Shown here piece after piece: positions 6,004 through 22,665 of a stretch of DNA of 64,000 bases. The DNA comes from Escherichia phage ETEC-TG, in sequence record OR786310.1; one strand, given 5' to 3'. Every line of letters begins with the position of its first letter. The stretch's first letter is position 1. The position numbers were made by a program, and so were the translations under genes. Under the pieces are notes generated by a model. It had not been told where the DNA came from. It worked only from the letters and a program-made list of their open reading frames with translations, and searched no databases.

Positions 6004-8157
6004 ATGAAACAAGCTATATTTACTGTCACGCGAGACAAGAGAGTAAATGCGAGTTCATTTAACTACACGACTGTTGACGGAACAGCAGTCGCTGGTAGAG
6101 ATTATATTGCAAAATCGGGAACACTTGTGTTCCCTGATGATGCTGATTCTGCTACTATTGTGGTTGAAGTATTTGAACGACCAAAGAACTCAATAGATCT
6201 TAACTTCTCCCTCCAAGTTTCAGGGATTAGTCAAAATAACATGATGGTTGAAACAACCATCAATTGTATTATAACTACTATCCAAGAAAATACTACTCCA
6301 ATAACTTGGACTACAAAAGACGTTAAAATGTTCTCTCCTATGTATTGGACAATAGATTCTCAAGCAACGGAAAGTTGTTCTATTGTATCTCATGGAGACT
6401 CTTTTACTGCAAGATTTGTAAACAGAACAACAGCAGGTTTGGCAGGGGTTATCTGGAGCACAGTTGACAAATATGACCATAAAGGTGTTGGGTATTTGCC
6501 TCACACAGATTTAAGTTCAGAGAAACTTTGGTTTAAAATGGAAATTAGTCAAAACATGCCAGGTTTTAAAGAAGAACCTTTGGTGCCGACTTTGACTGTA
6601 ACTCTCCTGGATAAAAGTGTTCATTATGTCAGTTTAGGATTCTACGCTTCAGATATTTCAGAAGATGGTAAAACAGCCACAATAAAGTTAGATTTTGGTA
6701 ATATCTTTTCTGGCCCTAATAATGATATTCCTTTGGATATGAGTGCTGTAGATAATATTTTCTTCTCTTTGATTACAGCAAGGTATGAAAAAATAGAAGA
6801 GGTTGTACCTATTGACAGTCAAGAGGCTTGGTTTACTTTCACTCTTCTTGAACCTACTTCTGGTTACAGTATGATGAAAGTCAGCAACCTTGTCCAGCCT
6901 GAACATGATATTCGCATGTGCACATCTTATGATGATATGTATAACCTGACTCCAGAGAGAGTTATTTATAATACATATGCACTAGGTTATCGTGGAATGA
7001 TTAACCATTACAACGGAATGTCTCACTATTATGAGTTCTCATGGAACGGAACATCTTGGGCTTTAAATAGATCTGTTTTCCTGAATCCGGCTACAGAAGC
7101 TTGGCTAAATAGTTTCCATTCTATAGCAAACGAGAAGGGCTACACGATAATGAACTCTTTAAGTTTTGAATTGATGAGCACAGTTTGTCCTGTAGAATGG
7201 GTCCAGCATGATTGGAACGATGCTCTTGCAGCAACAGGGTATGAACCTCCTAGTTATGTGTTGTCTCCAACTATTGACGAAGGTATGGAATATTTGCAAA
7301 ATGTTATTAACAAAATAGCATCTATTTCGCAAGCTAATAATATTCCAGTTGTCATTCAAATTGGTGAGCCTTGGTGGTGGTATAATACAGCAAGTAAAAT
7401 GCCTTGCATATATGATTACACTACCAAACTGGCATTCAACACAGAAACAGGCTTATTTGCACAAGATGCAGGAACAATAGATAATTATAAAACAGGAACA
7501 CCGTTTGACGAATACTATGCATTTTTGTCTCGTAAACTAGGGTTAAGAGTTACAAAGTTTGCAACAGACACTAGAGCAACTTATCCAGGAGCTAAAGTAA
7601 CATTGCTGCCATTCTTACCATCAATTATCGGCAATGGTTTAATGGAGAAAGTTAACTTTCCGTCTGATTACTACATTCCTGAAGCTTTTGATTTTTATTG
7701 TTCAGAGTGTTACGACTGGCTTCTGGAAGGTAAAATGATGAAAGCATTTGATGCAATTACCATACCACATGAAAAATTAGGTTTTGAATATTCTGATATT
7801 CACTATCTTGCAGGTTTTGTTCCAGATGCTACTCTTGCACCTTTGTATGGCTTTGATCCTGAATCAAACTACCGCACGTATCTTTGGAAAATGATTATAG
7901 GTAACATAGTGTTGAACGCCAATAAGTTCAATGGACTTACACAATATATATGGGCCTATCCTCAAATAATGCACGATTCTATCACGGTAGTTAATTCTCA
8001 ATCCCAAGTTTTCTATATGGGTAACGTGCCTTTGAACGCTTATTTACAGGATATCACTCTTAAACAGGTAAATGTTGAGATTGCCACCATAAGTGGAATT
8101 ACATTAGCCACTAAATCTGGAGAAGATTTAGTAACAACACAAAAATTTTATATATAG
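6004..8157 (+). CDS. Structural protein with N-terminal Calx-beta-like domain
   Basis: N-terminus FTVTRDKRVNASSFNYTTVDGTAVAGRDYIAKSGTLVFPDDADSATIVVEVFE matches the Calx-beta consensus (T.DGTA.AG.DY...G.L.F); 717 aa. Confidence 0.5.
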   Translation: MKQAIFTVTRDKRVNASSFNYTTVDGTAVAGRDYIAKSGTLVFPDDADSATIVVEVFERPKNSIDLNFSLQVSGISQNNMMVETTINCIITTIQENTTPITWTTKDVKMFSPMYWTIDSQATESCSIVSHGDSFTARFVNRTTAGLAGVIWSTVDKYDHKGVGYLPHTDLSSEKLWFKMEISQNMPGFKEEPLVPTLTVTLLDKSVHYVSLGFYASDISEDGKTATIKLDFGNIFSGPNNDIPLDMSAVDNIFFSLITARYEKIEEVVPIDSQEAWFTFTLLEPTSGYSMMKVSNLVQPEHDIRMCTSYDDMYNLTPERVIYNTYALGYRGMINHYNGMSHYYEFSWNGTSWALNRSVFLNPATEAWLNSFHSIANEKGYTIMNSLSFELMSTVCPVEWVQHDWNDALAATGYEPPSYVLSPTIDEGMEYLQNVINKIASISQANNIPVVIQIGEPWWWYNTASKMPCIYDYTTKLAFNTETGLFAQDAGTIDNYKTGTPFDEYYAFLSRKLGLRVTKFATDTRATYPGAKVTLLPFLPSIIGNGLMEKVNFPSDYYIPEAFDFYCSECYDWLLEGKMMKAFDAITIPHEKLGFEYSDIHYLAGFVPDATLAPLYGFDPESNYRTYLWKMIIGNIVLNANKFNGLTQYIWAYPQIMHDSITVVNSQSQVFYMGNVPLNAYLQDITLKQVNVEIATISGITLATKSGEDLVTTQKFYI

Positions 8158-8165
8158 GAGTAAAA

Positions 8166-10418
8166 ATGTCAACTACAATTACTAATTTACCCGAAACATC
8201 AAAAGTTAATGGTTCTGATTACCTGGTTTTAGACCAACCTGATAAGACTGTTAAAAGCACAGTTTCCAACTTTCTTACTGACACTGGGGTGGTTTTAGCC
8301 ACCCAGTTGAAAGATACAGATGGAGCTACCAAGTATCCAGAACTTCAGATTGCACGCTGGCGAGACGAGGGAGATATCAGAGGGTGGGGCACGGAAACAA
8401 ACGGTGATGTTACCGAAGCAATCATTGAGGCGGTAGCGGCGACAAGCGGCACTATCATTGTGCCACCTGGTGACTATGTTGCCACACCTACGCTGGCCGA
8501 AGTTCCGGCTGTGCTGAAATTGCTGTCCCGCGCTGATTTTCGTGGCAGGTTGACCATTAATCTGCCAGCTGGGACGGTCAATCTGAACGAGCAGACAGTC
8601 ATAAATTCTAACAGGAGTAATCTGTGCAAGGTCATTGGCGTAGCGCTAAACACGAGCGTTACAGGGCTTGTTTCTGTAGCTGGGTCAAGCAAGCAATATT
8701 CGATAACTCTGTCCCTGGCAGATGCCTCGCAGGTGTCAGTCGGTGACTATGCCATCTTCAGGCACGATCTGACGGGAACTGGTTTTTTCCACATACACTG
8801 CGGGGGCTGGCGGGTAACGGCTGTGTCCGGCAATAACGTGACCGTGCTCAACACATGCGTCTTGGATTCATTCCCTTCGTCAACCGTTACCGGTGGATCA
8901 GTCTCCATTATCAAGTCCGTTCTGAAATACACCGGCTGTGATGGGATTAGACCGGAGGGCGGCGACTGTATCGGAATTATTGATAATGTCGCCATCGTGG
9001 GTGATTACAACCTTGCTACCGGCGCAGGGACAATCGGTGCTCACGGCGTAATATCCTCAACACCCGTAGTAGTCACCGACGCCGCCAACGCATCCAACAA
9101 CGTAGCGAATATGGCGGCAGCGCTGGCCCTGGGACGAAATATTGCAATCAGTGCCTGGGGTGAGCAAGGGCTGGCAGTGTCGGGTCGCTCTGCGCTTGTG
9201 TGTAACTTCATCGCATCCTGTGCCAACCGTAAGCGTGGTATTTATGCGGAAGGTGCTCATATACGCGGGAAATTTATGATCGCCTCCGGAAACGGAGAGG
9301 ACGGCATTATTTCAGATACCACTGGATTTGTGCAGGCTGCATATGCCGTTTGCTCGGGTAACGGATTAAACGGGTTCTGGTCAACAAACCTCTCTCTTAT
9401 TGCGGCGGCAAGGGGAGTGGCTTGCTGTAACAAAACAAATGGTGTGGAGGCAAGGGGGCAGACAAGGCTCGCATTTGATCTCGGCCTTTCCTACGGAAAC
9501 GTTCTAAACGGTGTCAGCGCCTCTGATGGGGGCATGATTGACTTTGATGGCGGCATGTCAAGAGACAATCTCGTTGACGGGATCGCAGCGACATACAATG
9601 CAGTAGTTGACGCGAACAACGCCTCCAGTACCACCAATGGTCGTTACGGTACTAACGTGACCTCCGCGTGCATTATCATTTCAGGGACTGGTACTATATC
9701 TGGGAATACAGGGGCGGATGTTCGTGATAACGGCAATGGGATGGTTGTCCGACCAGACGGCACGATCTACCCATTCACTGGGGTCGCACAGGGTAATCTG
9801 TCGCTAAGAAACACCGTCAGCGGCGCGGGGGTTGACATTGTTCCTACAAGTATAGGTGACTTAATTCTGAGCTTTAAAAACTCAGCAGGCGGAACGCTTA
9901 ACCCGTTATACAACTTCAAAGCCGACGGTACTCAGTACCCTCAAAATGACGCGACGCAAAGCCTTGGGCGTGCCGCTAACCGATACAATGTCGGTTTCTT
10001 CGCTGGCGGAACACAGTCAACTTCAGATGCCACACTTAAAGACCCTATCCGGGAGTTCAATCAGGCCGAACTTAATGCAGCAATGCGAATCGCAAAAATG
10101 CTGGGTTTCTGGACATGGCTGGATGATGCCGGAAAACGGCTTCATGCAGGGACAACAGTGCAAGCGGTACTGGAGGTGCTGGAAGAAGAGGGACTCGACT
10201 GGCGTAACTATGGTTTCATCGGATTTGATGAGTGGGATGATGAATATATCCCAGTAACCATTGAGGTAGATGGCGAAGTCGTTGAAACAGGGGAAACGAA
10301 ATTAGTGCGTGAGGCTGGTTCTGTCTGGCAACTGCGCGATCAGGAATTTGACCGTTTCGTTATGCGTGGACTTTCTGAAAGGCTGAGTATTATAGAAAGT
10401 AAGCTGGATTTACTGTAA
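8166..10418 (+). CDS. Tailspike protein with beta-helix-like receptor-binding domain (GC-rich, mosaic)
   Basis: 750 aa; AT-rich conserved N-terminus followed by a markedly GC-richer body with Gly/Asn/Ser/Thr-rich repeats typical of pectate-lyase-type beta-helices. Confidence 0.55.
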   Translation: MSTTITNLPETSKVNGSDYLVLDQPDKTVKSTVSNFLTDTGVVLATQLKDTDGATKYPELQIARWRDEGDIRGWGTETNGDVTEAIIEAVAATSGTIIVPPGDYVATPTLAEVPAVLKLLSRADFRGRLTINLPAGTVNLNEQTVINSNRSNLCKVIGVALNTSVTGLVSVAGSSKQYSITLSLADASQVSVGDYAIFRHDLTGTGFFHIHCGGWRVTAVSGNNVTVLNTCVLDSFPSSTVTGGSVSIIKSVLKYTGCDGIRPEGGDCIGIIDNVAIVGDYNLATGAGTIGAHGVISSTPVVVTDAANASNNVANMAAALALGRNIAISAWGEQGLAVSGRSALVCNFIASCANRKRGIYAEGAHIRGKFMIASGNGEDGIISDTTGFVQAAYAVCSGNGLNGFWSTNLSLIAAARGVACCNKTNGVEARGQTRLAFDLGLSYGNVLNGVSASDGGMIDFDGGMSRDNLVDGIAATYNAVVDANNASSTTNGRYGTNVTSACIIISGTGTISGNTGADVRDNGNGMVVRPDGTIYPFTGVAQGNLSLRNTVSGAGVDIVPTSIGDLILSFKNSAGGTLNPLYNFKADGTQYPQNDATQSLGRAANRYNVGFFAGGTQSTSDATLKDPIREFNQAELNAAMRIAKMLGFWTWLDDAGKRLHAGTTVQAVLEVLEEEGLDWRNYGFIGFDEWDDEYIPVTIEVDGEVVETGETKLVREAGSVWQLRDQEFDRFVMRGLSERLSIIESKLDLL

Positions 10419-14811: not shown

Positions 14812-17800
14812 ATGGCAACATTCCCAACATATCCAGCAACGTCTCTCGAACAGGGCGTAGACCTGGTTATTTTCTCATCTAACCAACTCCATGATGTTAT
14901 TAATGGAAGTGCTACAGAGAGTATTGAAACAGAATCAGGGTTGATACCAACCCTGAGAAAAGCCCTTGTTGACAACTTTTTCTTTAAAAGCCCATTGGAT
15001 TGGGCGCAAGGCACAAACGAAACAGTTTTTAACCAACTTCGTTATTTCCAGAATGGAGTATTGAGCGGTTATTACTATGCTCCTAACGCTACATTGGTTA
15101 ACCCAATCCCTATGCAAGGGACTCCAGTAGGAGATAACAACTGGGTATTGTGGGGACTGAAAACAGAACAATTAGCAACAGAAGTCACCCCGTGGGTATA
15201 CTCTGGTGCAACTGGTTATGAAACAGTAATTAGTCCTCCTTACATCTTTGATAGTGCTATTGTTACGATCAATGGTGTTATTCAGGTTCTGGGGGAAGCT
15301 TTCCGTATAGAAGACAGTAAGATCATCTTATCTGAACCTTTGGGACACGATCCTGCAACAGGACTGCCAAACAAGCTTTTTGCTTATATTGGTAAAATCG
15401 TAGCTTCAGCAGATACAGATCCTAATCTAGAGAACCGTCTTGTTAGTTTAGAAACAAAAACGGAAGAACTAACAGAAAGCATGGATAAAGTCCCTCTGCA
15501 AGCTATTGCTCGTAAGTATGGTTTGTTAGATGATGAGGTGGCTTACGCAACAGCAGGTCAATCGTTAACAGGGATTAAAGCTCTGTATGATCCGGTAGCA
15601 CAGTCTTCCTACACATTACCTCCTAACATCACAGGAACTTTAACATCCTTATCTGTTTCTGGAGTAATGACTTATTCTGGAGGATCTGTAGACCTTTCTG
15701 CACTGGCTGTTGAGCGTGGACAGTTTGTTCATTTGCCTACAAGCTTTGGTAATAACGTAACTCTGACAGCTAAAAATCAGACGATTGGACGTGGTGCTGG
15801 TCGTTATCGTTGGGCTGGAAGTTTACCAAAAAGTATTTTGGCCTCTGATACATTGGAGACAAGCGGAGGATTAGGTCCAAATGCATGGGTTCTGACTAAT
15901 ACAGAAGGACTGTTAACCCCTCGTGGTGGAACATACAACGATCTATTCGATGTTGTCTACTTGTCAGAATTTGCTAACAATACAACTACCTATACCACAC
16001 CAGAAGCAGCTTTCCAGGCGGCACTGTTAGCAGCAAAAGCTTCGAAAAGCAAGATTCTCGATGCTTACGGTTGCGACATGACTTTCACGACAAGCTCTTT
16101 TGATATTCAAGATATCACTTTGCGTGGTGGTGTGTTCCGTGGTCAACGCGACTATCGTGTGCAGAATGCTACAGTAGAAGGCACAACTTTCCGTAACTCT
16201 CGTGTTATGTATTGGGGTGGTGCTGTGCGCATGTTCGATTGTTTGTGGGACGGTGCTCCTCGCGCAGGTCAAGTTGGTAGCTTGGTATTCCAAGGCAACC
16301 CAATATCAGGTACTTTTGAAATTGATAATTGTACTTTTAAAAACGGGTTATATGGCATTCTTCAACAAGGAACAGGGGAACCAGTAACACGCGGTGTCTT
16401 CCGTAACCTTACCTTCATGGACATGCAAGGTGATGCAATAGAACTGAACGTCATCAATAAACATTATGACGATGGTTGTGTGATTGAGAATATTTACCTG
16501 TCTAATATCGATGGGACTAACGCTCCTATTCCTCTGTCCAACTGGGGTATCGGTATCGGTGTAGCTGGTAAAGGACCATATGGTTACGGAATCCCTGATG
16601 ATCAATATTGTAAGAACATTACAATTCGTAACGTTTTTGCAAAACGTTGTCGTCAGATTGTCCACGTAGAAGTTGGTCGTAATATCTCTATCGAAAACAT
16701 TCATGGCGATCCAGATCAAACCGTATCTGTTGGGACAGGTTTGGCAACTGGCGCAGTTGTAATGTATGGAAGTAAAGACTTTACGATTGATGGTGTTTAT
16801 GGAGAGCCTAAAACAGACGGTAGCACACTTGCAAGTAATATCCGTATGATTTACTTGGAGTGGGGAACTAACGCAGTTCTGGATGAAGAGGGTAATCCGG
16901 TAGTTCCGGCACAAGGCAGACCTTCAAACCCATGCTTTAACTATTCTGTTCGTAACATTCACACCAAAACTGGGCGTGTTTTTGCGGGAGTTTCCGCTGG
17001 GCCAGGTTATGAAAACAGAGTTAGCTTTGAAAATATTCGTTGCGCTGCCTTGCAGTTGTTCGGTATAGCTTCTTGGCTTTCAATGTCTAACATCACCTGT
17101 AATATCTTCGATTGTGTTGGTCAACCTGAATCTGGTCCAGGGACATTTTATGATGGATTCTTCCGTAGAGAAAAATCTGTTCTTGAAATGGTTAACGTAA
17201 ACTGTTACCCAGATGGCAAGACGATGGTTACTGGTCGTCCACAGTGGAGCCGTTGCCGTTACTCGGATATTCATCGTGTCAACTGTAATGTTGAAGCTAA
17301 TATGTATACCAATATCGCAGGTGGTATTGGAGCTATTGTAGGGACAACGGGCAAAGTTTATTACTTAGAGCCTAATCCTAGTCGAAACATTGATGGAATG
17401 CATTTCCCAACAGGGAAAGAGTTTGACAAAGGGGATATGATAGTCAAGGCGGATAATACGTTCTTCCTTGTAACAACAAGTGGGGCATATATTCCAGATA
17501 TCCCAGCTTTCGGTATTCGAGCTACACAGGCAGGAGATACCTTCCTGACACAGAACTTGACTCCTAACGGGACAGCAACAAATGCTTCTTGGTTGTATCA
17601 TTACCCTCTGTCAGCAGGGACACGTATCCGTATTCCTGGCGCTGGTGTAGGTGGAGCAGATTTGGACACAGTTATTACTCGTGCACCTTATCAAGATAAT
17701 GATACGTGGACTAACCCAGTTAAAATAGACATTGCAGATCCAATTGTAACGCCTACAAGTGCTGGAGTTAGAATTAAAACCATACCTAATGATTCCAGTA

Positions 17801-17865
17801 ATGTTTCTGTAGGTAATACTGCGGTTATTCGCCCAACGCCAGTAGTAGATGTGCCAACAACCTAA
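14812..17865 (+). CDS. Tailspike protein (second, beta-helix-type; putative depolymerase)
   Basis: 1017 aa; elevated GC; repetitive Gly/Asn-rich body; many overlapping antisense ORFs typical of GC-rich insert. Confidence 0.5.
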   Translation: MATFPTYPATSLEQGVDLVIFSSNQLHDVINGSATESIETESGLIPTLRKALVDNFFFKSPLDWAQGTNETVFNQLRYFQNGVLSGYYYAPNATLVNPIPMQGTPVGDNNWVLWGLKTEQLATEVTPWVYSGATGYETVISPPYIFDSAIVTINGVIQVLGEAFRIEDSKIILSEPLGHDPATGLPNKLFAYIGKIVASADTDPNLENRLVSLETKTEELTESMDKVPLQAIARKYGLLDDEVAYATAGQSLTGIKALYDPVAQSSYTLPPNITGTLTSLSVSGVMTYSGGSVDLSALAVERGQFVHLPTSFGNNVTLTAKNQTIGRGAGRYRWAGSLPKSILASDTLETSGGLGPNAWVLTNTEGLLTPRGGTYNDLFDVVYLSEFANNTTTYTTPEAAFQAALLAAKASKSKILDAYGCDMTFTTSSFDIQDITLRGGVFRGQRDYRVQNATVEGTTFRNSRVMYWGGAVRMFDCLWDGAPRAGQVGSLVFQGNPISGTFEIDNCTFKNGLYGILQQGTGEPVTRGVFRNLTFMDMQGDAIELNVINKHYDDGCVIENIYLSNIDGTNAPIPLSNWGIGIGVAGKGPYGYGIPDDQYCKNITIRNVFAKRCRQIVHVEVGRNISIENIHGDPDQTVSVGTGLATGAVVMYGSKDFTIDGVYGEPKTDGSTLASNIRMIYLEWGTNAVLDEEGNPVVPAQGRPSNPCFNYSVRNIHTKTGRVFAGVSAGPGYENRVSFENIRCAALQLFGIASWLSMSNITCNIFDCVGQPESGPGTFYDGFFRREKSVLEMVNVNCYPDGKTMVTGRPQWSRCRYSDIHRVNCNVEANMYTNIAGGIGAIVGTTGKVYYLEPNPSRNIDGMHFPTGKEFDKGDMIVKADNTFFLVTTSGAYIPDIPAFGIRATQAGDTFLTQNLTPNGTATNASWLYHYPLSAGTRIRIPGAGVGGADLDTVITRAPYQDNDTWTNPVKIDIADPIVTPTSAGVRIKTIPNDSSNVSVGNTAVIRPTPVVDVPTT

Positions 17866-17871
17866 TGGAAT

Positions 17872-17890
17872 AGAGGGGGATTCCCCCTCT
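17872..17890 (+). terminator. Stem-loop AGAGGGGGA-TT-CCCCCTCT after tailspike gene
   Basis: Perfect 8-bp G/C-rich inverted repeat 7 nt after stop; weak T-tract. Confidence 0.4.
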
Positions 17891-17926
17891 TCTTCCAATA
17901 GAATGGTCTAATGATAGGAGAGATAA

Positions 17927-19951
17927 ATGAATTTAACAAGACCTAATAGTGCGATAGCCGATCTGGTAGAAGCTACTTATCGAAAACGTCGCAGCTTTGA
18001 GGCAGGTTTTACATTACGTAATTCCCGTGAAGTTTTGCTGTTAGCAGCAGAAGGGAATTATTACCAATGGAAAGGAACTTTTCCTAAAGTTGTTCCAGCA
18101 AACTCTACGCCAGCCACCACAGGTGGTATTTCTTCCCTTGCATGGCAAAGTGTTGGGACTGCTGATGATATAGCAATTATCAATGCCAAGTTTACGGCAA
18201 TGCAGCAACAGATTGATGATCTGTCGGAAACAATACCTGAAGCTGGTAAATCGGCTTATCAGATCGCACTTGATAATGGTTTTGTTGGAACAGAAGCACA
18301 ATGGCTTGCTTCTTTGAAAGGGGATACTGGTGCTCAACTTAATATTAAAGGATCATTAGCAAACACTAGTGAACTACCATCCACAGGTAACGTTGCAGGG
18401 GATGGTTATATCGTAGGTGATGTAATCTACGCTTGGGATGGTTCTGTTTGGAAACTTATTTCTTCTCTTGGGCCAGAAGGTAAATCAGCTTACGAGGTAT
18501 GGTTGGCAGATGGTAATACAGGATCTGTTTATGATTTTCTTACCTCTATAAAAGGTGATAAAGGTGATGTTGGTCCTACAGGGCCACAGGGAGCACCTGG
18601 TGTTAACGCCAACGGTTTTGATTATCGTGGGGATTTGCCTTCTACAAGTAACTTACCACAACCAAACTCTGAAAACGTAAGTCAAGCTTATTCTATCAAT
18701 GGTAATCTTTATGTCTCTAATGGGACAGCTTGGGTCAACATGGGTAATATTGTTGGTCCTCAAGGTCCACAAGGTGAGGCAGGTAAAGACGGTCTTGATG
18801 GAACAGATGGAGATGAAGGGAAATCTGCATATCAAAGTTGGCTGGATGCTGGTAATGAAGGGACAGAAGTAGATTTTATTGCCTCACTTAAAGGTCCAAA
18901 AGGAGACAAAGGTGATCAAGGAGAGCGAGGTCCACAAGGTGAACTAGGTCCACAAGGACCAGTGGGTGCAACAGGATCAGGCTTAGATATTATCGGGGTT
19001 CTGAACAGTGAAGCTGAACTTCCTCCTACCGGAGAAGTAGGTGATGCATATAAAATTAATAATGATTTATATGTTTGGGTTCAAGATGCTACGGAATGGA
19101 TGAATGTTGGCAGTCTTGGAGGAACATCAATTACAGCTAAAGGTCATGTTCCGAACAGTGAAGCTCTCCCTGTTTATAATAACTATGGCGATGCCTACTT
19201 AACTGAAGACACTAGTAATCTTTACATCTATACCTACGATCAAGACACCAATTCCGCATCTTTTGTTGACATGGGAAGTATTAAAGGCGACAAAGGTGAA
19301 AAAGGGGATAAAGGAGATAAGGGTGATCCTGGAACAAACGGAACCAACGGTACTGATGGGACCAACGGTAAGGACGGCGCACAGTGGTTTGTAGCAACAA
19401 CTAATCCAGTTGCAGGAGACGGTGTTATCAATGATTACGCCTTCAATACTACCACTGGAGCAGTGTTTAAGAAAACAGATTCTTCTACGTGGACGCTTAT
19501 AGGCACTCTTCCTAGTATACCAGAAGCCCCTCAAGACGGCTTGACGTATGGTCGGTCTGATGGAAACTGGATCGAAATATCAGGATCAGATCCTACGGAA
19601 GCTATAACACCAACTAGAGTTACAGCAGGTTTCATGGAACTTGAAACAACTGCTGCCAACTCTGGAGCATCTTGGACTCCTTCTGGAACTTCCAATATGT
19701 ATGTTGTTACAGTAACTGATGCTCTGACAGTTGGAGCATGGCCTGGTGTCACTGGCTCTACAAAACCTAAAGCGTTTTCAGCAATGATTTATTTGATTCA
19801 AGATACAACGGGACACACGGTTACACTAGATGCGTCTTATGGAGCACTAAATGATACAGAAATAGCAACTGCTGCTAACGCAGTAACAATTTTGCAATTA
19901 ACGTATCCTGGTGTGGGTGATATCGTGGACATGGTTGTTGTAACACGATAA
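17927..19951 (+). CDS. Tail fibre protein with collagen-like G-X-Y repeats
   Basis: 674 aa; several G-X-Y runs (GPQGPQGEAGKDGLDGTDGDEG; GDKGEKGDKGDKGDPGTNGTNGTDGTNGKDG) alternating with two recurring sequence modules. Confidence 0.6.
   Translation: MNLTRPNSAIADLVEATYRKRRSFEAGFTLRNSREVLLLAAEGNYYQWKGTFPKVVPANSTPATTGGISSLAWQSVGTADDIAIINAKFTAMQQQIDDLSETIPEAGKSAYQIALDNGFVGTEAQWLASLKGDTGAQLNIKGSLANTSELPSTGNVAGDGYIVGDVIYAWDGSVWKLISSLGPEGKSAYEVWLADGNTGSVYDFLTSIKGDKGDVGPTGPQGAPGVNANGFDYRGDLPSTSNLPQPNSENVSQAYSINGNLYVSNGTAWVNMGNIVGPQGPQGEAGKDGLDGTDGDEGKSAYQSWLDAGNEGTEVDFIASLKGPKGDKGDQGERGPQGELGPQGPVGATGSGLDIIGVLNSEAELPPTGEVGDAYKINNDLYVWVQDATEWMNVGSLGGTSITAKGHVPNSEALPVYNNYGDAYLTEDTSNLYIYTYDQDTNSASFVDMGSIKGDKGEKGDKGDKGDPGTNGTNGTDGTNGKDGAQWFVATTNPVAGDGVINDYAFNTTTGAVFKKTDSSTWTLIGTLPSIPEAPQDGLTYGRSDGNWIEISGSDPTEAITPTRVTAGFMELETTAANSGASWTPSGTSNMYVVTVTDALTVGAWPGVTGSTKPKAFSAMIYLIQDTTGHTVTLDASYGALNDTEIATAANAVTILQLTYPGVGDIVDMVVVTR
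19285..19378 (+). repeat. Triplet-periodic GGN-NNN-NNN coding repeat (collagen-like tract)
   Basis: ggcgacaaaggtgaaaaaggggataaaggagataagggtgatcctggaacaaacggaaccaacggt... Confidence 0.6.
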
Positions 19952-19955
19952 CAGA

Positions 19956-19979
19956 AGCCCCGAAAGGGGCTTTCTTTTT
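19956..19979 (+). terminator. Rho-independent terminator (GCCCC-GAAA-GGGGC + T-tract)
   Basis: Hairpin with GAAA tetraloop followed by TTTCTTTTT directly after stop of fibre gene. Confidence 0.7.
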
Positions 19980-19992
19980 ATGGAGGGTTTAA

Positions 19993-22665
19993 ATGTTTCC
20001 AATTCCAATATTTACTATTATGACCAGCACTGGTGTCGTTCCTCTGCCAGCGGGTATTGTTAAAAAAGTAATCACTTTAGATTACCCAGATAATGCTGGT
20101 AATTCTAACAGCAGTTTAGCAATTTTGCTTAATGATGGTAGATTGTTTACTCAAGGCGCAAACCTTTTTGGTGAGATTGCAGATGGAACTCGTAGTGCAC
20201 GATTCAATAATTTCCACTTAGCTTCTACTGTAGTAGCGGATGTGTTTACCGCAGATCGTTGTTTTGTTATTAAAACTAACAGCGGGGGATGGCAATATTC
20301 AGGATTGACAGCAGGGTTGGTAGGATCTATAGCAGCAGGTGGTACGGATGCATGTGTAACTACTTGGACCAGCTTTCCATCTGTAATAACAGGGACTATC
20401 TCTTTAGCCAATCTTAAAGAGGTTAAAGGAGGGTATAACAATACTCTTTGGTTAATGAATAGCGGTGTTCTTTATGGATCGGGTCAAAACACAGTAGGCA
20501 GTTTAGGTGCAAGCACTACTAACGAAGTTTCTACTCCCCGTCAGATAACAAGTTCAGCAGTTGCTTTTGATGCAGGTTATAACCAATGCTCTTATGTCAA
20601 CAATGCGGGAACCTTGCGTGTTTGTGGAGCTAGTAAAGGTTTAGCAGGTAATAATAACACAACAACCGCTTTTGTCAATGCCACGATATCCACTACTGAA
20701 ACAGTGTATGTCAAAGATTACATCAATACAGTTTCCCAGACAATAGTTGTAGGAGATACCTCCGGTGGCGCGGGTACAGTAAACTACTTATATGTTAGAT
20801 CTAATACAGAAACAACCTACACTAAACTGGACACCTTTGCAGCAGGTTTCTCAACATGGAAATTTCCACCAAGCCGCCACTCTTTTTTCGTTGGGATCAA
20901 TAATTCCTTGTGGGCTATTGGTAAGAACTACACTGCAAACTTAGGTTTGGGATATGATTCTGCGAGCGGAGATCCACTCCAAGTGGGAAAACCAGTTAAA
21001 CCTGAAGGAGTGGGTTCCTGGGATATAAACAAGCTCACAAGCGTTCATACGTTGAATATGGATATTACTAACCAATTAGGTTATCAAGGAACCTTTTTCG
21101 TTTATAACGGGGATATGTATTATTCCGGTATTTGGAAAGATGGGAAAGCCTCGTATCTGTTCAATAGTGGTCTAAACTATAATAAATTCACACCAATAGC
21201 AAGCTCCGTGATTACGGGGGATGTTCTGGCAACTGGCTTAACTACAGATTCTTTAGGAATTTGTATTGTAGGTGGAACTAAACAGTTGACACATTCTGTT
21301 AGCCCGGAAGGAGGTAAACTTTTCAATATTAAATACACTTCTTCTGTCCCTGCAAACATGACAATATCATCTACTGGTTTAATGACTTTCCATGCAGAAG
21401 GTGGTTTTGATGCAGGTATGACAGCCTTAAACGCTGAAGGAACAACTTTATCAGATACCTCTGGAGGATATGCTTCAACATTGAGTGTTTACACCCCTAG
21501 CTTATCTGCGATGGATGTAGGAACAACACAAACAATGGTAGCAGAAATAACGCCAACAGGAGCAGCAAGCTTACCTGGTATGGTTGTTGAGTATACAACT
21601 ACAGATCCTAATGTTGCTACAGTAGATCCTACAACTGGTGTAATAACTGGTGTTGGTGATGGTGGTTGTAGAATTGGTTGCACAGCTACATATCAAGGTG
21701 TTGTTACCGCTTCTGATAGTTCTTATTTAACGGTGAACGCTGTTGCGGGAAAGGAGTTAGCTCCATCTCCGAGTAGTAGTTTAACGGTTCTAAACGGATA
21801 TTTCAACCACTCGGCAGATGGGGCAATTACGTTCCCAATTTTATCGGGTACTGTCACACCAGCTAACTTTGTAGTTAAGGTGGATGACGTTGTAATACCT
21901 TCAAATAAAGTAATATTTAGAAATAAAGCTTTCTCTACAGTGGATAGTTATCCAGCAGGAGAATATAGACTGGCTATTGAATTTGCAAGTGCTTCAGTAG
22001 TGAATAGTGTTGATGTGTCTATGGAAGCAAATCCAGATCTTTTAGAATTATGGGGCGGCAACAGAATTGGTTATTCTACAAGCCCAGCCTCACAATTCTT
22101 AAAAGGTTGTGCTAACTTAAGACGAATAACTTCTGATTGTTTTAGTAACACATCTTACACCGGAACATCTATAAGTGGTATCTTCTCTGGCTGTACAAGT
22201 TTGACAGCTATCCCTGAAGGATTATTCAGTGATGCTTTATTTCCTTCAATGACAACAATGTCAAGCACGTTTGAAGGTTGTACATCTTTAACATCTATTC
22301 CTTCAGATTTATTTAAAAATCTATCAAAAGTTACAAGATATTCTTACACCTTTAAAGATTGCACCTCTCTTGCAGAAGTTCCAGCAGGAATGTTTGATAA
22401 TATTCCAACGAAAGTGACCTCTTTAACAGCTACATTCCAAGGTTGTTTAGCACTTACAGATTTTAATAAAATCTTTAATGACAACCCAGGGTTAACTGTT
22501 TGTGGTAAACGTGGAGCATTATCTTCTTTCTTTAGTGGATGCACAAATCTTACAGGAACAGGAACAACATTAACAAATACATTAGGCGGAGTAGCTAATA
22601 GTTACCTATTCAGGTATTGCACAAAACTTTCTGATTATAACAATATTCCTTCGGGTTATAAATAA
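19993..22665 (+). CDS. Receptor-binding/tail fibre protein with Big_2-like Ig domain and C-terminal BspA-type leucine-rich repeats
   Basis: 890 aa; Ig-like segment (VATVDPTTGVITGVGDGGCRIGCTATYQGVVTASDSSYLTVNA); C-terminal repeats FSGCTSLTAIPEGLF / FEGCTSLTSIPSDLF / FKDCTSLAEVPAGMF / FQGCLALTDF / FSGCTNLTG. Confidence 0.55.
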   Translation: MFPIPIFTIMTSTGVVPLPAGIVKKVITLDYPDNAGNSNSSLAILLNDGRLFTQGANLFGEIADGTRSARFNNFHLASTVVADVFTADRCFVIKTNSGGWQYSGLTAGLVGSIAAGGTDACVTTWTSFPSVITGTISLANLKEVKGGYNNTLWLMNSGVLYGSGQNTVGSLGASTTNEVSTPRQITSSAVAFDAGYNQCSYVNNAGTLRVCGASKGLAGNNNTTTAFVNATISTTETVYVKDYINTVSQTIVVGDTSGGAGTVNYLYVRSNTETTYTKLDTFAAGFSTWKFPPSRHSFFVGINNSLWAIGKNYTANLGLGYDSASGDPLQVGKPVKPEGVGSWDINKLTSVHTLNMDITNQLGYQGTFFVYNGDMYYSGIWKDGKASYLFNSGLNYNKFTPIASSVITGDVLATGLTTDSLGICIVGGTKQLTHSVSPEGGKLFNIKYTSSVPANMTISSTGLMTFHAEGGFDAGMTALNAEGTTLSDTSGGYASTLSVYTPSLSAMDVGTTQTMVAEITPTGAASLPGMVVEYTTTDPNVATVDPTTGVITGVGDGGCRIGCTATYQGVVTASDSSYLTVNAVAGKELAPSPSSSLTVLNGYFNHSADGAITFPILSGTVTPANFVVKVDDVVIPSNKVIFRNKAFSTVDSYPAGEYRLAIEFASASVVNSVDVSMEANPDLLELWGGNRIGYSTSPASQFLKGCANLRRITSDCFSNTSYTGTSISGIFSGCTSLTAIPEGLFSDALFPSMTTMSSTFEGCTSLTSIPSDLFKNLSKVTRYSYTFKDCTSLAEVPAGMFDNIPTKVTSLTATFQGCLALTDFNKIFNDNPGLTVCGKRGALSSFFSGCTNLTGTGTTLTNTLGGVANSYLFRYCTKLSDYNNIPSGYK

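Follow-up and report, generated by a model that had tools for sequence, protein, structure and literature searches.

How can a phage fibre be built on collagen-like helices only a few triplets long, and does a fibre made of repeated parts change its length by recombination between them? Both questions are raised by one gene of Escherichia phage ETEC-TG, which lies at positions 17927-19951 of a stretch of 64,000 nucleotides (nt) in sequence record OR786310.1; this whole stretch is hereafter called the window, and it comes from a Phapecoctavirus genome (phAPEC8-type, Stephanstirmvirinae). A sequence-only reading of the gene had described a tail fibre in which collagen-like G-X-Y triplets are interleaved with two recurring modules, and had noted that such fibres can change length by recombination between repeats. 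In the reading preferred here, to which we give a probability of about three in four, the gene encodes a homotrimeric lateral tail fibre of a phAPEC8-type Escherichia coli myophage, with an N-terminal docking domain, a segmented collagen rod held by small modules and a foldon acting as clamps, and a distal knob. The novelty of the gene itself is low, because it is the collagen-domain tail fibre already annotated in phAPEC8-type phages; what remains of mild interest is the structure and role of the widespread, uncurated modules, designated A, B and C below, and the natural pairing of collagen with a foldon.

Parts of the collagen-like tail fibre

The region coincides exactly with one open reading frame (ORF) of 674 amino acids (aa). 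The profile PHROG 15437, 'tail fiber protein', matches it over the full length (E 0, 1335 bits, aa 1-674 against profile positions 1-655 of 656), and the gene shows nt identities of 99.9% to phage dw-ec and 99.1% to phAPEC8 gp087 (YP_007348547.1), with 70 phage records matching in a megablast search. In synteny with phAPEC8, it is preceded by the genes of the baseplate wedge, the short fibre and a chaperone and by that of a colanic-acid-degrading tailspike of 1017 aa; this position, together with the above matches, bears out its identity as a tail fibre. In GenBank its orthologs bear names such as 'tail fiber protein', 'collagen triple helix repeat protein' or 'lateral tail fiber protein with type I collagen domain'. 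It is the 'TfpM2' gene of Stephanstirmvirinae phages (PMC12695924), and gp151 of phage phi92 (PMC13450770) is taken to be its counterpart.

The protein is arranged as N-terminal domain, coiled coil, A-B-A-col6-B-col8-A-col10-B-B-col11-C-foldon, knob, where the number after col counts the triplets of a collagen-like run (Col1 to Col4). Modules A1-A3 and B1-B4 were placed by pairwise alignment and profile together with AlphaFold2 (AF2) models, for which confidence is given as the predicted local distance difference test (pLDDT) score. The parts are as follows.

17927-19951, + strand: tail fibre ORF, 674 aa
17960-18157, + strand: N-terminal tailspike-type domain PF18668 (Tail_spike_N), aa 12-77; E 1.3e-19, 70.5 bits against a cut-off of 25
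18167-18241, + strand: coiled-coil-like segment of three heptads, aa 81-105; I82, I85, F89, M92, I96, L99 and I103 at 3-4-3-4 spacing
18245-18322, + strand: module A1, aa 107-132; helix-loop-helix in AF2
18332-18472, + strand: module B1, aa 136-182; four-stranded beta unit in AF2, pLDDT 84-91
18479-18556, + strand: module A2, aa 185-210
18554-18607, + strand: collagen-like run Col1, aa 210-227; 6 triplets, constant in 13 aligned orthologs and in the more distant relatives P0015-P0027
18611-18754, + strand: module B2, aa 229-276
18755-18826, + strand: collagen-like run Col2, aa 277-300; 8 triplets, 5-11 in orthologs
18818-18895, + strand: module A3, aa 298-323
18893-18982, + strand: collagen-like run Col3, aa 323-352; 10 triplets, 8-10 in orthologs
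18980-19120, + strand: module B3, aa 352-398
19124-19285, + strand: module B4, aa 400-453; enlarged loop
19286-19384, + strand: collagen-like run Col4, aa 454-486; 11 triplets, with 9-nt tandem repeats; 0-13 triplets in orthologs
19385-19507, + strand: module C, aa 487-527; predicted four-stranded beta unit, found almost only between the last collagen run and the foldon
19514-19582, + strand: foldon-like segment SIPEAPQDGLTYGRSDGNWIEIS, aa 530-552; sequence matches to the T4 fibritin foldon
19610-19948, + strand: C-terminal knob, predicted beta-sandwich, aa 562-674; PF26209 recorded for orthologs; presumed receptor-binding tip

The several G-X-Y runs noticed at first are real and far beyond chance, since the four uninterrupted runs have 6, 8, 10 and 11 triplets, while the longest run in the shuffled protein has a mean of 2.5 triplets and reaches at least 6 in 15 of 5000 shuffles. 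The Pfam family Collagen (PF01391) also matches the fibre, with an E-value of 4e-12 and 46.2 bits against a cut-off of 27.2. The runs score below 50 in pLDDT in the AF2 monomer model, as is expected of a single chain. The NCBIfam models of the LPXTG collagen-like adhesins Scl1, Scl2 and Lcl gave 35-61 bits against cut-offs of 325-500, and their matches are confined to the G-X-Y runs.

Module A has 26 aa and occurs in three copies, as had been proposed, with the family consensus GKSAYQLAVDNGFTGTEAEWLASLKG; Smith-Waterman comparisons between the copies give z-scores of 12.9-17.6, and the observed score was reached by none of 500 shuffles. Module B has about 47 aa and the consensus AGLNIKGTLASVAELPATGNAGDAYLVGGNLYVWDGTAWVNLGPI. 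About five copies of it had been proposed, four of which stand (z 5.5-13.5, the observed score again reached by 0 of 500 shuffles), and control comparisons of A with B give z from -0.7 to 0.8. The fifth, at aa 487-527, is assigned instead to a separate module C with the consensus DPGPADGRVGDYFLNTTTQEYFLKTSATTWA, which recurs in relatives, because it resembles B1 alone (z 6.6; -0.4 to 1.6 against B2-B4) and is undetected by a B profile built from 647 instances. The profile-profile similarity of C to the core of B is weak (hhalign P 0.005; controls 0.09 and 0.43). The interleaving with collagen described by the sequence-only reading therefore holds, with three module types in place of two. At the level of the whole gene, self-comparison finds significant internal repeats in the protein, and in the DNA only the 9-nt periodicity of the collagen-coding runs.

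In sequence and profile searches, no Pfam, NCBIfam or PDB-sequence family was found for modules A and B, apart from two weak signals. One is a cumulative Pfam DUF2934 signal on the A modules of the A-rich relatives P0029, P0104 and P0152, and the other a match of the B core to the phiKZ inner-capsid protein gp184 in a profile search of PDB sequences (E 8e-4); the same kind of search gave no solved structure for module A, and a full-text literature search for its motif strings gave no relevant paper. The three A-rich relatives, which lie outside the window, consist mostly of tandem module A in 9-38 copies with a period of 25-26 aa. As a further observation, the DNA around A1 (18238-18337; nt 312-411 of the gene) has 78-87% nt identity over 60-100 nt to unrelated phages, namely Acinetobacter phages, Cellulophaga phage phiST, Pseudomonas jumbo phages and Butyrivibrio virus Ceridwen, a conservation unusually high for so short a module in phages so distant.

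The list of parts first given for this protein was incomplete, in that the PF18668 domain, the coiled coil, the foldon and the C-terminal knob had been overlooked. Among PDB sequences, the N-terminal domain matches 9vvr, a tail spike, with E 1.9e-13, and three chains of CBA120 tailspikes (5w6h, 5w6f and 4oj5) with E from 1.7e-9 to 1.3e-6, and the heptad spacing at aa 81-105 suggests a short coiled coil behind it. For the foldon, the segment alone matches T4 fibritin foldon chains in a phmmer search (E 0.003-0.025), and a profile of 36 foldon motifs from relatives matches the foldon 1rfo_A with E 1.4e-9. PF07921 (Fibritin_C) is recorded for relatives of the fibre, and gives no match to the fibre protein itself at E <=0.1. 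In the AF2 model this region has two short strands, aa 541-544 and 547-550, forming a hairpin at a low pLDDT of about 50-57. The foldon, at aa 530-552 of 674, is internal and followed by a 120-aa knob, and is not at the extreme C-terminus.

As the foldon is a hallmark of T4 fibritin, which forms the neck whisker, one may ask whether the protein belongs to the head or neck, as a whisker or a capsid decoration, rather than to the tail. We consider this very improbable: PF18668 is otherwise found in tailspikes and tail fibres, the gene stands between the colanic-acid-degrading tailspike and another tail protein, downstream of baseplate genes, and the PHROG families matched fall under 'tail' wherever a category is assigned, with the exception of a single weak 'head and packaging' family which is limited to the collagen-rich aa 452-520.

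The C-terminal knob matches the C-terminus of PHROG 4549 fibres and the tail fibre sequence of phage phiTE. The phiTE entry 9cuy was considered as an experimental structure of the knob and rejected, as the sequence matches but only residues 14-171 are modelled there. The upstream 1017-aa tailspike (14812-17865, + strand) is connected with the same families: it carries an internal PF18668 at aa 302-361, and its first approximately 115 aa resemble PHROG 4549, the family whose C-terminus matches the knob of the collagen fibre. Such links by PF18668 and PHROG 4549 are hints that the tailspike and the fibre may share docking parts, and the N-terminal region of this tailspike is a candidate for the partner on which the fibre docks.

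Modules and foldon as candidate clamps of the triple helix

The fibre is one member of a large group. Among 8,000 candidates scored, 1,880 relatives of the whole protein were found at E <=1e-10, and a single 80-aa A-B unit retrieved 7,319 proteins at E <=1e-3 from 1.84 billion cluster representatives, including one of 2,782 aa with up to 38 stretches matching the query. Where relatives have names, these denote tail fibre or collagen-like proteins, from phages of Citrobacter, Serratia, Acinetobacter and Burkholderia. The order of parts was counted in the top 120 relatives, chosen by their similarity to the fibre, which have 1-21 copies of A and 1-11 of B per protein. They contain 882 collagen runs with a median of 8 triplets, 819 of which (93%) have a module A, B or C no more than 12 aa after them, and 88% of which are preceded by B, A or C. 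The module next after a run is B in 503 cases, A in 224 and C in 89. Module C comes after a collagen run in 90 of 96 cases, with a foldon motif then following in 67, and relatives carry 1-4 tandem foldon motifs after C.

Monomer models were made by AF2 for the shaft (aa 100-460, 24-sequence alignment, mean pLDDT 71.7) and for the C-terminal part (aa 480-674, 13-sequence alignment); a homolog search with the last 145 aa, bounded by its word index, gave three fragments and no deeper alignment. Each A is predicted to be a helix-loop-helix, with block pLDDT of about 70-78, and each B a four-stranded antiparallel beta unit with a short turn at a conserved 'ELP' and strand-block pLDDT of about 84-93; C is modelled with four strands at a pLDDT of about 80, and the knob as a beta-sandwich at 77-93. 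In a Foldseek search of the PDB, the shaft model found no match at E <=1e-3. At the fold level the four-stranded models of B and C weakly resemble the trimerization domains of collagens XV and XVIII, and such resemblances are taken as leads, not proof.

Without hydroxyproline, short collagen helices depend on help for trimerization and for coming into register. The runs of this fibre have only 6-11 triplets and cannot be hydroxylated, and therefore each would be bracketed by small, independently folding units. A precedent is given by the prophage collagen-like fibre EPclA, in which the domains on either side of the collagen serve for trimerization and renucleate its helix (PMC3368898), and another by engineered foldon fusions. 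It is on account of this need, these precedents and the above order of parts in the relatives that we infer a role of clamps for A, B, C and the foldon, by which the triple helices are held and registered. In the mechanism proposed, the N-terminal tailspike-type domain presumably docks the fibre to the branched tail-fibre apparatus, and the three chains would be held together and in register, around the short triple helices, by the helical hairpins of A, the four-stranded beta units of B and C, and the foldon. The distal pair of C and foldon may serve as the folding nucleus, with the triple helix zipping up from there. Collagen rises about 0.286 nm per residue, by which the 35 triplets would amount to roughly 30 nm of triple helix, so that the product would be a thin segmented rod of this helix and globular beads. 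At its end, the beta-sandwich knob presumably contacts the host surface.

A different role could be imagined for B and C, as lectin-like beads which bind surface glycans along the shaft and add avidity, instead of clamping it. The best, non-significant Foldseek matches do include single propeller blades of lectin or hemopexin type, modules B and C contain conserved aromatic residues, and the weak match of B to phiKZ gp184 (PMC11297242) suggests that the B unit can exist outside trimeric fibres. Nevertheless, one consensus is kept across phages of Escherichia, Serratia, Acinetobacter and Burkholderia and in many metagenomes, and therefore a structural role fits better than a host-specific binding. 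Moreover, the conserved Y, W and L look like core positions, and the modules are positionally tied to collagen runs. Glycan-binding beads are thus distinctly improbable in our estimation.

Several points weigh against the fibre model as a whole and temper the probability given to it. The folds of the modules are predicted by monomer AF2 models on the above shallow alignments, of 24 and 13 sequences. The choice of the 120 relatives by similarity biases the grammar count towards the architecture of the fibre itself. The multiplexin domains, to which the fold lead points, have no sequence similarity to the modules, since the B profile against PDB sequences at E <=10 gave phiKZ gp184 and chance matches only. 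The knob also resembles docking domains, namely those in the N-terminal constructs of CBA120 TSP4 and in a T4 gp9-like baseplate protein, and because of this its receptor-binding role is assumed from position only. Finally, in the cryo-electron microscopy study of phi92 the ortholog gp151 could not be fitted into any fibre density (PMC13450770).

Beyond this gene, a wider proposal may be put forward only tentatively, with the odds rather against it: modules A, B and C would be uncharacterised trimer-forming units, a general phage toolkit for making thin rods of short unhydroxylated collagen, in which B and C share fold and role with the trimerization domain of collagens XV and XVIII, and the tandem A arrays of up to 38 copies would be an undescribed fibre of alpha-helical hairpins. 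The gene as such adds little, while the residue-level list of parts and the grammar seen in the 120 relatives are a useful by-product; from the grammar follows a testable account of how very short collagen helices may be stabilised in phages.

Length of the fibre and exchange of its blocks

With respect to the second question, internal repeats could lead to unequal recombination between copies and hence to length variation that is active in these phages. Some observations go in this direction. Among the orthologs the triplet numbers of Col2, Col3 and Col4 vary over the ranges listed above (5-11, 8-10 and 0-13), and collagen runs, which make up 16% of the columns of the ortholog alignment, hold 58 of its 126 gap columns, another 43 coming from the loss of module C in the ortholog P0011. 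Phage ASO2A lacks one 9-nt unit of the Col4 tandem repeat. In SKA64 (OM362897) there is a 76-nt tandem duplication of exactly module A1, after nt 394 of the gene. The distant relatives differ widely in their numbers of A and B, as given above; they keep the N-terminal A-B-A-col6-B, and their homology to the fibre breaks at Col2 or Col4, after which module numbers and tips are different.

The material for such recombination is nevertheless poor. The A copies have 56-64% nt identity with each other and the B copies 39-53%, and there are no long repeats in the DNA of the gene: the longest exact one is of 15 nt, in the GPQGE codons of Col2 and Col3 (shuffles, mean 10.5 and maximum 13). With exact repeats of this size and modules so diverged, the repeats are too short for efficient homologous recombination between modules. 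The lengths of close relatives are constant as well, all 14 of the full-length members listed in the 168-member 90% cluster having 674 aa and the listed members of the phi92-type cluster having 653 or 656 aa, and the module order is the same in 13 orthologs with 58-99% identity, apart from the C loss in P0011. The duplication in SKA64 is out of frame, with the deposited coding sequence starting downstream, and it is doubtful whether it is a genuine disruptive duplication or an assembly error.

A second large change was found in phage EP57 (vB_EcoM_EP57, OR544956), where 486 nt (162 aa), equal to window positions 18880-19365, are deleted in frame: the end of A3, all of Col3, B3 and B4, and the greater part of Col4 are missing. 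Mediation by repeats was rejected for this deletion, as there is no repeat or microhomology at the junction. It is likely to be an assembly artefact, since the EP57 genome has only 130.7 kb and fibre genes next to this one are truncated too.

Ongoing unequal crossing-over among the modules is therefore unlikely in our view. Fibre length is conserved within the genus, and it would change slowly, by gain and loss of G-X-Y triplets through slippage in the 9-nt coding repeats; over long timescales whole blocks may be exchanged with junctions in the collagen runs, in place of continuing unequal crossing-over between A or B copies. The suggestion that length changes by recombination between repeats is thus only weakly supported for this gene: indels in the collagen runs of orthologs and differences in module number at a distance speak for it, and the diverged module copies, the short exact repeats and the constant length and module order of the closer relatives speak against it. 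For practical use, the collagen runs mark safe junctions for engineering fibre length, or for swapping receptor-binding tips, in therapeutic phages of this group.

Genomic setting and comparison with known systems

The gene is bordered by the following signals, the first two read from the sequence.

17872-17890, + strand: G+C-rich hairpin AGAGGGGG-ATT-CCCCCTCT, between the upstream colanic-acid-degrading tailspike gene and the fibre gene
17916-17922, + strand: ribosome-binding site AGGAGAG, 4 nt 5' of the ATG
19954-19983, + strand: intrinsic-terminator-like hairpin GAAGCCCCGAAAGGGGCTTT followed by a T-run

The equivalent of the first hairpin is annotated as a rho-independent terminator in phage ASO2A, and it was not called by a simple terminator scan of the window; at the place of the last one, terminators are annotated in both phAPEC8 and ASO2A. 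Two minus-strand ORFs within the fibre gene (98 and 111 aa, with TTG starts) are treated as spurious.

Other tail genes of the window show unusual compositions of their own. Downstream of the fibre gene, an 890-aa tail protein (19993-22665, + strand) combines an RCC1-like beta-propeller, Big_2 immunoglobulin-like domains and weak DUF285-type repeats, an unusual mix for a phage fibre. A 717-aa ORF (6004-8157, + strand) carries Calx-beta together with 'non-contractile tail sheath protein' N-terminal and TIM-barrel domains (PF23844, PF23845), here in the fibre cluster of a contractile-tailed phage. Next to it, a tailspike-like ORF of 750 aa (8166-10418, + strand) has about 50% G+C, against about 39% in the rest of the window, and Pfam finds in it only the Peptidase_S74 intramolecular chaperone, close to its C-terminus. 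Among 50,697 phage genomes there is no record that covers at least 80% of it, and matches to other tailspikes of Phapecoctavirus or phi92 type are limited to its first approximately 224 nt and its 3' part. The protein of phAPEC8 at the same position is endosialidase-like. The pattern suggests that the receptor-binding core was recently swapped as a cassette.

As for the known systems, the nearest are phAPEC8 gp087, phi92 gp151 and 'TfpM2', which are the same gene at the same position with the same module order, with about 60% aa identity to the phi92-type orthologs and nothing material different. In the papers searched (PMC13450770, PMC12695924), no description at the level of modules is given. 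The CBA120 tailspikes (4oj5, 5w6f, 5w6h) and other PF18668 spikes have the N-proximal domain in common with the fibre; however, these spikes continue into beta-helix enzymes, whereas here the domain leads to a collagen-like modular shaft with no predicted enzyme domain.

Regarding block exchange, Duplessis and Moineau reportedly described in 2001 host-specificity proteins of Streptococcus thermophilus phages in which collagen-like repeats flank a variable region, the repeats being proposed as exchange junctions for receptor-binding segments. The likeness lies in the homology breakpoints at Col2 and Col4 of the present fibre, while protein family, host and morphotype are unrelated, and we know of no A, B or C modules in those proteins.

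In terms of architecture, the prophage side tail fibre proteins EPclA-EPclD of enterohaemorrhagic E. coli (PMC3368898) are trimeric, and they resemble the fibre in having hydroxyproline-free collagen flanked by non-collagen modules, which in the EPcl proteins trimerize and nucleate refolding. Their collagen forms a single long domain, accompanied by PfN, PCoil and PfC, in contrast to the four short runs bracketed by A, B and C, with a foldon, in the fibre here, and a Pfam scan at E <=0.1 found neither PF08400 (PfN) nor PF06820 (PfC) in the latter. With the foldon of T4 fibritin (PDB 1rfo) the foldon-like segment of the fibre shares the motif IPEAP-DG-Y-R-DG-W; that of fibritin stands at the extreme C-terminus after a coiled coil, whereas in the fibre it is internal and the 120-aa knob follows. 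In the engineered collagen-foldon chimeras (PDB 1nay, 9gfr) the foldon is placed C-terminal to the collagen, as in this fibre, which suggests that the collagen-foldon fusions long used by protein engineers occur naturally.

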